Shown: one piece after another, positions 3,548 through 30,037 of the stretch
Position numbering within the stretch: the stretch's first letter is position 1
How the letters are laid out: every line of letters starts with the position of its first letter
DNA from: Candidatus Magasanikbacteria bacterium RIFOXYC2_FULL_42_28
GTDB lineage: Bacteria; Patescibacteriota; Patescibacteriia; Magasanikbacterales; GWA2-37-8
DNA: 64,000 bases
Reading direction: 5' to 3'
NCBI GenBank assembly: GCA_001784435.1
Contig: MFQZ01000005.1
Location: 25,015-89,014, forward strand
Translations under genes and position numbers: made by a program
Notes under the pieces: generated by a model
Databases searched by the model: none
The model's input: the letters and a program-made list of their open reading frames with translations, nothing else
What the model was told of the DNA's origin: nothing

Positions 3548-4165
3548 ATGAACGAAAACATCAAGGAAATCCTAGAAAAAATAAGTAATCTTAATAAGGA
3601 ACTATCCGCCAAATACGCCCAGCTTGCTGAAAAATACGGCTTTCATTTTGCCAATAAAAAAGTGGTCTTTTTGGAAGAATTTCGTAAGCGCAATCTAAAA
3701 TTTAGAATTCCGGTATGGAAATATGTTTTTCCGCGCAATTTTCGGCATTTGTTATCTTTGCCGTTTATTTACATGATGATCGTGCCGGTGGTTATTCTTG
3801 ATATTTTTATTACTATTTATCATACGGTCGCGTTTCCGCTCTATCATATTCCCAAAGTCAAGCGCGGTGATTTTATTGTTTATGACCGGAAATTTTTGGA
3901 TTATTTAAATATTATTCAAAAAGTCCACTGCATCTATTGCACCTATGTCAACGGCCTATTCGCCTACGCGGTCGAAATCGCCGGTCGGACCGAACGCTAC
4001 TGGTGTCCGATAAAATCCGCCCACAAACCCAAATTCCACCACGGCTGGTATAGCGAATTTGCCGATTATGGCAGTCCGGAGGAGTGGAAGGAGAAGTTTA
4101 ATGATGAAAAGGCGTTTGCGGGGTTGTGCGAGAACGATAAAAATAATAAAGACACACAATCTTAA
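3548..4165 (+). CDS. Conserved hypothetical membrane protein with HCxYCxY and RTExYWCPIK motifs
   Basis: Full ORF, one or two TM segments, upstream TGCTATAAT. Confidence 0.7.
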   Translation: MNENIKEILEKISNLNKELSAKYAQLAEKYGFHFANKKVVFLEEFRKRNLKFRIPVWKYVFPRNFRHLLSLPFIYMMIVPVVILDIFITIYHTVAFPLYHIPKVKRGDFIVYDRKFLDYLNIIQKVHCIYCTYVNGLFAYAVEIAGRTERYWCPIKSAHKPKFHHGWYSEFADYGSPEEWKEKFNDEKAFAGLCENDKNNKDTQS

Positions 4166-5409
4166 TCGTCGTCAAAATCTGCTAAAATCGCCACCCCCGC
4201 CAACCGCCCCGTCGCCCAGGCGGCTTGTAAATTAAAGCCACCGGTAAAACCATCCACATTTAAAATTTCGCCGGCAAAAAATAAACCCTCGCATTTTTTT
4301 GATTCCATTGTTTTTGGGTCAATTTCGGTTAATTCCACGCCACCGGCCGTGACAAATTCTTCACCCGCGCCATAGCCGACCGCGTGTACCATCGTATTTT
4401 TTAAAATCTCGGCCGACAAACTAATTTCGGCTTTGGAAATCTCGGCGTTTTTTTTATTTATCGGCAAATTAAATTCCAGCGCCAAACTTTCTACTAATTT
4501 TAGCGGTACAAATTGATGCAAAGTGTTTTTAAAATTTTTCTTTAATTCCGCTCGACAAGAATTTTGAATGGTATTTTTTAAATCTTCTATTTTTATCTCC
4601 GGCAAAAAATCAATGAAAATTGGCAGGGGATTTTTTGGGCTAAATAAGGTCAGAGCCGATAGGGAAGAGACCGCGAACACGGCTGGGCCGCTAATGCCTT
4701 TGTGGGTAAACAAAAACGGGCCGGTGCGCGAATTTGGTTTGGAGCAGTCGGCGCTAATCGTGGCCTTGACAAATGACATCCCCGCGAGCGTGCCCATCCA
4801 CGCTTCTTTCAAGACAAACGAATGTAAACTCGGGGCTAATTTAGTAATCGTATGGCCAAGCGCTTCGGCCAAAGTGTAGCCATCGCCTGTGGAACCGGTA
4901 TGGCGATAGGCCTGCCCGCCAAGCGCCAGCACGACCGTGTCTGCCAAAATTTCTGAACCATCTTTAAAAAATATTTTAAAAGTATTATTTTCTTTTTCCA
5001 TTTTTACCACCGAGCGCCCCAACACCACTTGAATCCGAGAACGCGCAAATATTTTTTTAAAAGCCCCCACCACATCTTCGCCGTGATCTGAAACCGGAAA
5101 AACCCGTCCGTCGTCTTCGCATTTTAACGGCACATTATGATCCTCAAACCAGGCGCGCACGGCGCGCGGTCCAAACGCGAACATTGCCGAAATTAAAAAT
5201 TTATTTCCGCGCGGATAATTTAACAAAACCTCTTTGGGATTTTCGGTACCAGTCGTCACATTGCACCGTCCGCCTCCGGAAATAATCACCTTGCGTCCTA
5301 AATCACTATTTTTTTCAATCAAAATAACTTCGGCCTCCGGATTGCCTTCACAAATTGTCGCCGCTGCCATCATGCCGGCCGCGCCACCGCCGATTATTAT
5401 TGTTTTCAT
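4162..5409 (-). CDS. HI0933/BaiN-family NAD(P)/FAD-dependent oxidoreductase
   Basis: IIGGGAAGMMAA, SGGGRCNVT, GSTGDGY, VTAGGV, TGGFNLQAA; start reassigned to MKTIII. Confidence 0.9.
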   Translation of the reverse strand: MKTIIIGGGAAGMMAAATICEGNPEAEVILIEKNSDLGRKVIISGGGRCNVTTGTENPKEVLLNYPRGNKFLISAMFAFGPRAVRAWFEDHNVPLKCEDDGRVFPVSDHGEDVVGAFKKIFARSRIQVVLGRSVVKMEKENNTFKIFFKDGSEILADTVVLALGGQAYRHTGSTGDGYTLAEALGHTITKLAPSLHSFVLKEAWMGTLAGMSFVKATISADCSKPNSRTGPFLFTHKGISGPAVFAVSSLSALTLFSPKNPLPIFIDFLPEIKIEDLKNTIQNSCRAELKKNFKNTLHQFVPLKLVESLALEFNLPINKKNAEISKAEISLSAEILKNTMVHAVGYGAGEEFVTAGGVELTEIDPKTMESKKCEGLFFAGEILNVDGFTGGFNLQAAWATGRLAGVAILADFDDD

Positions 5410-22147: not shown

Positions 22148-22156
22148 ATTGTTTAA

Positions 22157-22266
22157 AATTTCAAAATCCAAATTTCCAATTTCCAATCAAATCCAAAATC
22201 CCAATTACAAATTTGACATTTTGGCTTTGACATTGATTTGACATTGGAAATTGGAAATTTAACATT
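22157..22266. repeat. Family B element between atpE and atpF
   Basis: Near-identical to 20841-20950, same orientation. Confidence 0.9.
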
Positions 22267-22279
22267 AATCACTAAAACT

Positions 22280-24726: not shown

Positions 24727-24733
24727 TTTTTAT

Positions 24734-24855
24734 TGTCATTCCGAACGAATGTGAGGAATCTCCATCCCAATCACAAACCGAATGGAGATCCCTCGCTCGC
24801 CTTGGCGAAGCCTATCGGCGAAGCCAGGTCGACGCGAGTCTCGCTCGGGATGACA
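24734..24855. repeat. Family A element with nested extra hairpins between atpA and atpG
   Basis: TGTCATTCCGAACGAATGTGAGGAATCTCCAT...ATGGAGATCCCTCG...CTCGGGATGACA. Confidence 0.9.
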
Positions 24856-24874
24856 GTTGAGTATATAATACACT

Positions 24875-25878: not shown

Positions 25879-27258
<1,380 letters not shown>

Positions 27259-27278
27259 ATTTAAATTTGGTAGTTTAC

Positions 27279-27404
27279 ACGCGACGTATGGGTTTGCCTC
27301 TCGCCACCGGTGTCGTCCCGACCTCGGTCGGAACGCACCTACCGCTCAGATTTATGCGAATAAATCTTCCGCGAGTTGACTCAAGGCAAACCCATACGCC
27401 GCGT
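27279..27404. repeat. Structured element copy 1 (long closing stem, conserved core)
   Basis: CGCGACGTATGGGTTTGCCT...AGGCAAACCCATACGCCGCG; core shared with the inverted copy 2. Confidence 0.8.
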
Positions 27405-27426
27405 TAGCTGGTCTATAAAATAACTA

Positions 27427-27534
27427 GCAGATATATTGGCTTACCTTGAAGCAACTCGCGGAGCCGAGGCGAGCGGTAGGTGCGGCCGGTCGCAGGGACG
27501 ACACCGGTGCTGAAAGGTAAGCCAATATAGCTGC
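27427..27534. repeat. Structured element copy 2 (inverted relative to copy 1)
   Basis: GCAGATATATTGGCTTACCTT...AAGGTAAGCCAATATAGCTGC; its reverse complement shares CACCGGTGTCGTCCC, CGCACCTACCGCTC, TCCGCGAGTTG and TCAAGG with copy 1. Confidence 0.8.
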
Positions 27535-27550
27535 GTAAAATAATCACGCT

Positions 27551-27988
27551 ATGGGAACATTACACTTCAAAATCGCCACACCGGAAAAAGTTGTCTATGA
27601 AAAAGATATTTTTCAGGTTTCTATTCCAACCACGATGGGGGAGATAACAATTTTACCTCACCACATTCCGTTAGTATCGGTTTTACAAACCGGGGAAATG
27701 CGCGTAAAAGATGCCGAAGGTGAACACTTAATTGCGATTGCGGGTGGGTTTATGGAAGTGCGCGGTAAAAATGAAGTTGTTGTTTTAGCAAGTAATGCGG
27801 AATTGGAGACTGAAATTGATTTGGACCGAGCGGAAAAGGCGCGCCAAGCGGCCATTGACCAAATGGCGAGAGCAAAAGCAGGCGAAGATATTGATTTTGC
27901 GCGACTTCAAGCCACGGTTGACCGCGAAATGAACCGCTTAAAAATCGCCCGAAAATACCGCAAATTACCCCCACCTAAAGAAAATTAA
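27551..27988 (+). CDS. atpC: ATP synthase F1 subunit epsilon
   Basis: IATPEK, GEITILPHHIPL, IAGGFMEV. Confidence 0.95.
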   Translation: MGTLHFKIATPEKVVYEKDIFQVSIPTTMGEITILPHHIPLVSVLQTGEMRVKDAEGEHLIAIAGGFMEVRGKNEVVVLASNAELETEIDLDRAEKARQAAIDQMARAKAGEDIDFARLQATVDREMNRLKIARKYRKLPPPKEN

Positions 27989-28076: not shown

Positions 28077-28208
28077 ATGGATGAAAAATGCACTTCTTGC
28101 GCCATCACCATGGATGACCAAGAACAAACTTGCTCCTGCAACGATTCTTTGTGTCGGCGTTGTTGTGATTGTGAGAATGGGTGCGGATGTGAATGTAAAG
28201 CCAAGTGA
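28077..28208 (+). CDS. Cys-rich metallothionein-like peptide (43 aa, 11 Cys)
   Basis: MDEKCTSC...CSC...CRRCCDC...CGCECKAK; extended -10 TGGTATAAT about 25 nt upstream. Confidence 0.65.
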   Translation: MDEKCTSCAITMDDQEQTCSCNDSLCRRCCDCENGCGCECKAK

Positions 28209-28264: not shown

Positions 28265-30037
28265 ATGCGAATTGACCAAGGACAATTCCTACAAGTGGGA
28301 GAACGGGCTGGAGTCAAAAATCATGACATCGCTAAAATCTTAGCGGATATAGAAGGTGAAACGGGAGAGAAAGTAAAGCCGGAAGTTGCCCGCGCGATTT
28401 TGAGAATGTTATCTGGCAAAGAATTGAAAGGCGATGACGCCAAAACTCTTCTCAGAGAAATCAACGCTGAATTGTATGATGTTGGAGTTAGATCAGCATC
28501 GCAAAACCCAGACCAAAATGCCGAAGTGTCCTGGACAAAAGATAAAAGAGATAGTGTTAAAATATTGGTGGCCGCTTTAGAAGGATGTTTATTTGACGGC
28601 CAAATACTTAATATCAAACCGGAGCACTACTCCTTGTTTGCTTTTTTGGTTAATCGCTTGGCTAAAATCGGCGAAACTCAAGTCCGGGCTGGCGGCGAAC
28701 TACTAGTGGCCGATTATAATAAAGAAAAATTAGAATCCTTTGTACGCGACGTAGAACAATTCGCCCAACAATTCCTTACTCCAGATAATCTGGAAACCGA
28801 AGAACAAAATTGTAAAATAAACATAGAAGAAAATAACCGTCAAAGCTACGCGTTGGCAGAGACAGTAAAAAATAAAGAACTTCAAGCCCGACAAAAAGAT
28901 GATGCTAATCCTCAACTGACAAAGCAACGTAAAAAAACAGAGGAAAGTCGACGGTATTTTTATGATTATAAAAATGATAACGAACGGGCCCTACACAACG
29001 AGCTCGGTGAGATCATTAACGAAATAATTGAAAGATTGGAACAAATGAAAGAAGAGTATACTCCCGCCAGAGAAGAATTGGGGCGAGATACTCGACATAA
29101 TTATAAATCAGCAGTCCAGACGATGTTGGCAACATTAATAAAAAAAAGAAAAGATATCATTGATAAAATAATCAACAATATCGCCGGGGGTGAATGGAAT
29201 AAATTTTCTTTGGGGACAGTTCTAGAAGATGATCACTTCGCGTTAGAGGGAGAAGAGCGGGGAACTCATCATGCCTTGTCAGTTTTGTTGTGGGAACTGG
29301 AGCGTAGGCATCAAGCCGCCACTTCAAAAGCTGTTCAACCAAAAAAAATGGCGACGCCAAAAGCAGTGCCTAAAACAACACCAAAAATACAGGGTAAAGG
29401 TTTCGGGGCATTAGCTCAATTGAAGGATGCCTTACCAGATAACCCGACAAAAAAGCCACAAGAAAAATCGCTCTTAAGTTTGTTATCAGAGGATCTACCG
29501 GAAGGAACGCACATGCAAACTTTGCTTAGATTGAGAGACAACCTTATAGCCGACAAAAGACACGGGGAAGCGATGGCCACAAAAGTAGACACGGAACAAG
29601 AAAGAAAACAGCGCTACCAACTTGAAACAGAGCGAAGAGTATTATCTATACAATTAGGAAGCATAGAACGCCTAAAACAAGCATCGCCCCAATTAATTAT
29701 CGATAGTGGCAGTAGAATCAGGGCGAGTATTAAAACTAATCCGGGATCAGGACTATATTTGTTAAAAAGCATGATAGTGGCGTTAAAAGTTATGTTGGAT
29801 GAATATAATCTTCAAGATAATCAAAAACCAAGTGCCTCCATTGCTATTGATCTGGCTTTAAAAAAACGGCCGAGTAATGGACAAAAAACAGGACAAATCT
29901 TCATGGGACCTCGTGGTGGATTTGACAGCAGAAACCCAGCCGGTAATAATTATGAAACTGTCCATTTTCCTCCTGAACATCTGCCTTTTGCATTGGCGGC
30001 GGTTGCTTACGCCTTAAAACAAAAAGACGCGGAGTGA
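28265..30037 (+). CDS. Large hypothetical helical/coiled-coil protein
   Basis: 590-aa ORF, E/K/Q-rich, no recognised motif. Confidence 0.75.
   Translation: MRIDQGQFLQVGERAGVKNHDIAKILADIEGETGEKVKPEVARAILRMLSGKELKGDDAKTLLREINAELYDVGVRSASQNPDQNAEVSWTKDKRDSVKILVAALEGCLFDGQILNIKPEHYSLFAFLVNRLAKIGETQVRAGGELLVADYNKEKLESFVRDVEQFAQQFLTPDNLETEEQNCKINIEENNRQSYALAETVKNKELQARQKDDANPQLTKQRKKTEESRRYFYDYKNDNERALHNELGEIINEIIERLEQMKEEYTPAREELGRDTRHNYKSAVQTMLATLIKKRKDIIDKIINNIAGGEWNKFSLGTVLEDDHFALEGEERGTHHALSVLLWELERRHQAATSKAVQPKKMATPKAVPKTTPKIQGKGFGALAQLKDALPDNPTKKPQEKSLLSLLSEDLPEGTHMQTLLRLRDNLIADKRHGEAMATKVDTEQERKQRYQLETERRVLSIQLGSIERLKQASPQLIIDSGSRIRASIKTNPGSGLYLLKSMIVALKVMLDEYNLQDNQKPSASIAIDLALKKRPSNGQKTGQIFMGPRGGFDSRNPAGNNYETVHFPPEHLPFALAAVAYALKQKDAE

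Follow-up and report, generated by a model that had tools for sequence, protein, structure and literature searches.

Two adjacent copies of an interspersed three-way-junction repeat, probably a non-autonomous mobile element, between atpD and atpC of a Patescibacteria genome

REP, REPIN and BIME sequences are extragenic, non-autonomous hairpin repeats that occur in many copies and in patchy numbers, form inverted doublets and mosaics, and keep their hairpin while the stem sequence varies (PMC3337134), and in all of these respects they resemble the repeat family described here. In the part of that source drawn on here, however, REPs are simple palindromes of ~20-40 nt whose mobile unit is the doublet (PMC3337134), whereas a single junction unit of ~115 nt is usual in the present family. 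A Y1 HUH (RAYT) transposase belongs to REPs; the present repeat has no association with one. The bcr1 repeat of the Bacillus cereus group is likewise mobile, ~155 bp long and branched in a cruciform-like manner, with compensatory changes, and the passages on bcr1 in PMC3184786 that we rely on name no linked enzyme, just as none was found here. According to the same passages bcr1 has 5-bp direct repeats and a transcribed RNA fold (PMC3184786), whereas the present family has no consistent direct repeat, a fold that is mostly antisense and a closing stem that is free in sequence. ERIC/IRU, Correia, RUP and other MITEs are comparable as 100-160-nt stem-loops located at the 3' ends of genes with filled and empty sites, but are described as having conserved terminal inverted repeats and a target-site duplication (TA for ERIC; PMC3184786), neither of which is present here. 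Rickettsia palindromic elements (RPEs), compared by their description in that source, are palindromic repeats of 105-146 nt in bacteria with reduced genomes (PMC3184786). The NTS/SRM repeats related to the GIY-YIG ssDNA nuclease Ssn are oriented single-strand hairpins that are common in symbionts; as portrayed in the sections of PMC11893778 used here they are simple hairpins of 20-50 nt, in contrast to a branched unit of ~115 nt, and the SRM pattern given there matched 0 of 84 copies of the present repeat and nothing in the atpD-atpC gap.

Two further systems share formal features with the repeat. Retron ncRNAs are accompanied by a linked reverse transcriptase gene, whereas the present family has neither a link to nor a co-occurrence with such a gene. 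In integron attC sites one strand folds to the recognised form, with conserved unpaired bases, variable stems and a position after a stop codon; attC sites are linear hairpins, whereas the present unit is branched, does not form accessory-gene cassette arrays and has no nearby integrase. The repeat appears to behave like REP/REPIN/BIME, bcr1, ERIC and RPE but lacks their defining features (RAYT, conserved termini, duplication, SRM pattern), and the family is apparently undescribed. No description was found in the literature outside subscription journals and supplements. The main text of one recent preprint (bioRxiv 10.64898/2026.10.21.760802) contains none of the terms Patescibacteria, CPR or three-way; unlabelled clusters of large intergenic surveys such as this one could include the family.

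The window, which is the whole stretch of DNA analysed, comprises 64,000 nt of contig MFQZ01000005.1 from Candidatus Magasanikbacteria bacterium RIFOXYC2_FULL_42_28, a genome of 1.15 Mb with CPR-type gene content. The gap between atpD and atpC is 292 nt long and contains the only two copies of the repeat in this genome (Table 1). The original prediction, made from this DNA alone, had pointed to four blocks shared in the same order by the two copies, to closing stems that are unlike in sequence yet both pair, and to exchangeable small hairpins between the blocks. All four blocks were found in both copies and their coordinates confirmed, the closing stems are 95% (copy 1) and 89% (copy 2) paired, and the small hairpins are present in both copies as described. 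With up to two mismatches allowed, the 14-mer block has 2 matches in the whole window against an expectation of 0.11, and 0 of 100 shuffles reached 2. Folding z-scores relative to shuffles for the four single strands range from -6.0 to -10.7 as RNA and from -6.4 to -8.7 as DNA. Each copy is a complete element of ~110-125 nt. The predicted structure is therefore real, but it had been quoted on the wrong strand: the fold common to the family lies on the minus strand of copy 1 and on the plus strand of copy 2, so the folding strands of the two copies diverge. The doublet is unlikely to be an assembly artefact because a contig from another study matches positions 27237-27387 with 0 differences and the whole doublet is also present in one related organism. 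Groundwater relatives, one of which spans the whole doublet, show compensatory changes at 27303/27380, 27348/27367, 27351/27364 and 27353/27362.

Table 1. Positions in the window of the doublet, its parts and the flanking genes
Feature	Position	Strand	Remarks
atpD, F1 beta subunit	25882..27258	+	Upstream host gene; copy 1 begins 20 nt past its stop
Copy 1 of the three-way-junction repeat	27279..27404	-	Conserved fold on minus strand
Copy 1 closing stem P1, left arm	27279..27299		Partner 27384-27404
Copy 1 core block, 15-mer	27305..27319	-	3' side of P4 with bulged A, 3' side of P2
Copy 1 variable hairpin of arm P4	27314..27335	-	
Copy 1 core block, 14-mer	27334..27347	-	Internal-loop GA, 3' side of P3, junction linker, 5' side of P4
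Copy 1 variable hairpin of arm P3	27348..27367	-	Three compensatory changes in related organisms
Copy 1 core block, 11-mer	27368..27378	-	Bulged A, 5' sides of P2 and P3, internal-loop GGA
Copy 1 block, 6-mer	27381..27386		
Copy 1 closing stem P1, right arm	27384..27404		Partner 27279-27299
Spacer between copies 1 and 2, 22 nt	27405..27426		Kept in part in related organisms
Copy 2 of the repeat	27427..27534	+	Conserved fold on plus strand
Copy 2 closing-stem arms	27427..27453 / 27508..27534		Pair (89%); P1 arms about 27427-27447 and 27514-27534
Copy 2 block, 6-mer	27444..27449		
Copy 2 core block, 11-mer	27452..27462	+	
Copy 2 minimal P3 hairpin	27463..27470	+	
Copy 2 core block, 14-mer	27471..27484	+	
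Copy 2 core block, 15-mer	27495..27509	+	
atpC, F1 epsilon subunit	27551..27988	+	Downstream host gene; starts 16 nt past copy 2

Other features were observed in and beside the atp operon. A TGTC-tagged inverted repeat of SRM/REP type occupies the atpA/atpG gap (24733-24858), and the atpE/atpF gap contains an AT-rich periodic inverted repeat (22150-22275) that resembles gene-less hairpins of IVS type. Directly past the atp operon terminator is a 43-aa ORF with 10 cysteines and no Pfam hit (28077-28208, plus strand), whose product we take to be metallothionein-like from its composition, and a 590-aa ORF at 28265-30037 (plus strand) also has no Pfam hit.

On the folding strand the elements follow in the order closing stem P1, TT, tandem GA, a short bulged P2, a two-armed junction and a return through GA-(A/G)A to P1. 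Arm P3 is made up of CGC, the GGA/GA internal loop and a hairpin that varies from 8 to 60 nt. A 3-4-nt linker ending in A connects to arm P4, in which a bulged A and another variable hairpin are found. Among 54 non-redundant copies the loop A and GAG are invariant (54/54), the bulged A is present in 53 and the linker A in 52. The covariation that had been predicted around a conserved multiloop was borne out: 91.5% of cells pair and double changes occur in 35 of 39 pairs in an alignment of 33 copies, and the corresponding values for 48 copies outside model building are 91.0% and 38 of 39, these counts being taken from model-fitted alignments and hence biased toward the model; in slid-alignment controls pairing was below 49%. 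Wobble pairs reveal strand specificity, with G.T outnumbering A.C by 113 to 18 in the 54 non-redundant copies and by 52 to 11 in 32 more. The folding strand also has the lower folding energy in 49 of the 54 copies with RNA parameters and in 51 with DNA parameters. Structural variants include two G107 copies with an extra hairpin in P2 and a G107 copy apparently inserted in arm P3 of a second, truncated one (L260:3661-3830, G107:C21). A likeness to group II intron domain V or 16S rRNA helix 23a was ruled out, as the pairing in question is not common to both copies.

The closing stem is fairly fixed in length (median 20 bp in 82 copies) and free in sequence. Among 13 copies in G016, median identity is 0.86 in the inner part and 0.50 in the arm, and their stems differ by 609 double versus 142 single differences, with 219 of 234 pairs being Watson-Crick. 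Two G107 copies (L188 and L245) are 99% identical inside and have different arms. Wobbles within the closing stem favour the folding strand over the mRNA strand (G.T 23 versus A.C 2). Such paired turnover fits arm-to-arm copying by template switching better than stepwise compensation under selection. Template switching perfects inverted repeats, as set out in the part of PMC7202029 consulted here, and covariation in the long closing stem is therefore weak evidence of function; better evidence comes from the unpaired core bases that do not vary. Derivation of the closing stem from the target was considered and rejected because copies at different sites in G110 and in G287 share nearly the same stem. 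Direct repeats at the stem ends measure 0-1 nt in 62 of 82 copies, 2 nt in 14 and 3 nt or more in 6, giving no consistent target-site duplication in the 82, where the ends were set by the extent of the stem and a short duplication within it could escape. The termini are the most variable columns of the alignment, and the conserved part is internal.

Covariance models were used to trace the family, a search of CPR genomes that the original prediction had proposed. A first model, built from four copies (the two of the doublet, the metagenomic copy L071 and a copy in G005), gave matches in 10 of 151 genomes of the order. A second model, built from 33 copies, found 1-20 copies each in 20 of the 100 genomes scanned from the source genome's own family (the source genome counted) and matched 12 of 151 genomes of the class and 4 of 151 of the phylum (the source genome counted in both). 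Four GC-rich non-CPR genomes had no covariance-model match (0/4). About 130 copies were examined (84 + 48, with two of the 48 doubtful and three clipped at contig ends), a sample drawn with two models of limited breadth, in which distant subtypes are under-counted. Copy numbers are 20 in G107, 15 in G016, 10 each in G023 and G110, and 16 in G287 (E up to 0.01). They range from 0 to 20 among close relatives, and genera are patchy, with 4 of 12 genomes carrying copies in g19, for example.

Searches by sequence were far less productive. BLAST with the doublet gave no match in 60 relatives, among which the covariance model finds copies in G005, G006, G016, G019, G022, G023 and G032, so sequence search is blind to this repeat family. 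Pattern scans recovered one real member in 116 metagenome loci (L071, in which the copy follows the stop codon of what is presumably a lysS-like gene) and one, that in G005, among 240 genomes of the order. An exact-pattern scan of genome contigs returned 8 matches, all attributable to chance, and was uninformative because its pattern included a position later found to be variable. Viral contigs yielded no member by the model (best score 21.5 bits) among loci supplied by pattern scans, the last of which covered 16 of 64 parts, and BLAST against phages and plasmids gave no match. A weak and much diverged match of 29.6 bits was noted in the delta-alpha gap of another genome's atp operon (L443:3018-3179, G016:C4).

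A typical copy begins a few to 30 nt past a stop codon. The neighbours are, we assume, housekeeping genes; their names are our own assignments from sequence, save for atpC, atpD, comEC and neighbours with Pfam matches. In 81 copies the folding strand is antisense to both flanking genes in 45, sense in 13, between convergent genes in 10, between divergent genes in 4, undetermined in 5 and within an ORF in 4; the corresponding numbers for 48 more copies are 19, 3, 15, 3, 7 and 1. Pooled, 64 copies are antisense to both flanks versus 16 sense (p 6e-8, with kin not independent), a bias that argues against a cis-acting role of the conserved fold in mRNA. Two copies translate in frame inside genes that we take to be uvrA-like and dnaX-like; the remaining in-ORF calls are unconfirmed. 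RPEs also occur in frame inside genes and are not known to have an invariant strand-specific junction.

Congeners differ in which sites are filled. Of six congeners compared at queA, four have no copy and two, G023 and G107, have one each, in opposite orientations. Against a purely transient presence, congeners have some old copies in common at identical sites (those of pnp, aspS and a 333-aa gene), which equally fits retention for host use. G023 and G107 share two sites at which core identity is highest to a paralogue in the same genome (best 0.82-0.95) and lower to the orthologue (0.74-0.76), which points to homogenisation or re-insertion.

Taken together, we conclude that the pair between atpD and atpC consists of two complete units, side by side, of a Patescibacteria interspersed repeat; the repeat is probably non-autonomous, mobile and selfish, and an enzyme probably recognises it as folded ssDNA. 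In this scheme one strand would be extruded, forming a three-way junction atop a stem of ~20 bp, and a trans-acting protein would read the junction (the GGA/GA loop, the bulged A and the TT-GA/GA-AA stem base). The same protein would copy the unit into short intergenic gaps, the tolerated sites in compact genomes, and insertion would often occur beside an existing hairpin, producing mosaic doublets like the present one. The closing stem would only have to pair: when one arm changed, fold-back template switching would carry the change over to the other, which would account for the turnover in pairs. Conversion or re-insertion would keep the cores of one genome alike, and the antisense bias would most simply be put down to the loss of copies that have the more stable fold in the mRNA. 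By analogy with the biology of REP, SRM and attC sequences, ssDNA is clearly favoured over RNA as the active form. A bolder reading, unlikely though worth stating, is that the repeat represents a new selfish class, a T-shaped single strand defined by its internal junction that rebuilds its ~20-bp stem by fold-back synthesis while spreading. Such an element would have no terminal sequence and no target duplication, would be served by an enzyme or by host replication and repair proteins alone, and might pass through a cDNA step from mRNA carrying the reverse complement.

Candidate mobilising enzymes were sought in the genomes and beside the copies. A Y1 transposase is found in 3 of the 20 genomes that carry the element and in 17 of the 80 that do not (p 0.76), these being draft genomes in which repeats and enzymes are often unassembled. 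None is present in the source genome, G107, G023 or G110, and no copy adjoins any of 9 Y1 loci checked. GIY-YIG genes occur in all 33 genomes tested, whether or not the element is present, and one lies near a copy in one of about 130 cases. Among 47 small or unrecognised neighbour proteins there is no recurring enzyme; 16 have no Pfam hit.

The alternative that survives best, itself improbable, is that RNA is the active form, either as an antisense structured RNA or ribozyme of the folding strand or as an mRNA copy that is reverse-transcribed to cDNA before insertion. RNA would accommodate the G.U wobbles and the tandem GA pairs equally well, and the ~20-bp stem of free sequence resembles RNase III stems and the a1/a2 repeats of retrons. 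In the source genome, reverse transcriptase and Avd-like genes occur together at two loci of DGR type, L045 (G000:C3) and L046 (G000:C6), the reverse transcriptase of the latter being split over two frames. Neither locus has a copy of the repeat, however; reverse transcriptases occur in 11 of the 20 genomes with the element and in 34 of the 80 without it (p 0.33), and none was found in G016 or G023 with their 15 and 10 copies. No promoter-like site was found near copies, and the wobble bias of the closing stem lies on the folding strand. The original prediction had not recognised the family, and the Rfam comparison that it proposed agrees: no family reached the gathering threshold, Rfam 15 giving only sub-threshold miRNA hairpin matches on the window and none on the elements in 13 member loci, and no known ribozyme family matched. 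Hairpin tips were also compared. On the folding strand cGNAg tips number 28 of 108 against 8.6 expected, and 13 of 56 against 2.9 in a second set, while the mRNA-sense strand has 15 UNCG and 9 GNRA tips among 108, and 11 of each among 56 in the second set. The cGNAg loop is stable in DNA, and since it reads cUNCGg on the opposite strand, the tip loops do not separate DNA from RNA.

Very unlikely is a second alternative, in which the copies are attC-like sites of gene cassettes used by a short Xer-type recombinase. The strand-specific fold with its extrahelical bases, the position after stop codons and the core exchange at shared sites would be expected of such sites, as would an array in G110, where four near-identical copies in the same orientation occupy consecutive gaps. 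The genes between the G110 copies, however, keep their order in five congeners without copies, and the neighbours are housekeeping genes rather than accessory cassettes. In the congeners, three of the four G110 sites were measured (the sua5 gap being left out), and these have gaps of 0-17 nt or contain unrelated AT-rich hairpins. G107 and G023 have one gene each of the tyrosine recombinase/integrase family, and none of 9 integrase loci scanned has a copy.

The original prediction had offered the doublet as the two ends of a non-autonomous element lacking its enzyme. The first part of this proposal, a non-autonomous mobile repeat, is the reading that we favour; the second part, that a transposon or hairpin-bounded cassette lost its enzyme gene and left the copies as its two termini, is highly improbable. 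Divergent doublets do recur in G287, where 5 of 14 inspected copies have an inverted three-way-junction partner 30-70 nt away and two of these doublets combine an identical spacer with different neighbouring genes; a related organism has the present doublet too; and a metagenome contig of 1098 nt has an inward-pointing copy at each end with 988 nt between. Against this, each copy is complete, most of about 130 copies are single, and inverted doublets were seen in the source genome and G287 only. Copy pairs with a gene between them, a comparison that the original prediction had suggested, flank comEC, groEL and a metG-like gene, which are housekeeping genes, and no small neighbour gene recurs. 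Five other G287 copies adjoin an unrelated rod-shaped repeat, and G367 has a direct tandem pair. We conclude that the doublet joins complete units into a mosaic, units that can sometimes move together, and is not a pair of ends. The rod-shaped sequences form a second repeat family of ~90-110 nt with internal loops (G287, L243:2780-2900 and 4160-4279, L220, L238, L453).

The atpD-atpC gap is at most 60 nt long in 21 of 29 relatives, and 22 nt in a genome of the same genus. No copy of the repeat lies at this position in any of the 29, the 8 longer gaps holding other hairpins or an ORF. The gaps of L018, L030, L032, L033, L034, L039 and L040 contain several unrelated hairpin insertions, and the gap is thus a tolerant landing site. 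The least probable reading has the pair acting as a cis-regulatory RNA of the host on atpC expression or mRNA stability, akin to the ncRNA pair inside the atp mRNA that had also been suggested: the position inside the operon, the very stable predicted fold of the atp transcript with the doublet (about -135 kcal/mol) and the ability of repeats of such kind to alter mRNA decay, mentioned in the portion of PMC3184786 drawn on here, speak for it, but the repeat is absent from this site in all 29 relatives and the identical core lies beside many unrelated genes, mostly antisense. The doublet is most likely a passenger at the atp operon, and any effect on atpC expression incidental.

How repeats like REP, ERIC, RPE and bcr1 spread without a linked transposase is an old open question, for which the present family offers a clean test case: an invariant core that could serve as protein bait, a swappable stem, filled and empty sites, and a strand rule. 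The strong covariation of its long stem is of a kind that can mislead ncRNA screens. For the organisms themselves, the finding means that streamlined CPR genomes carry structured repeats that are actively turning over.
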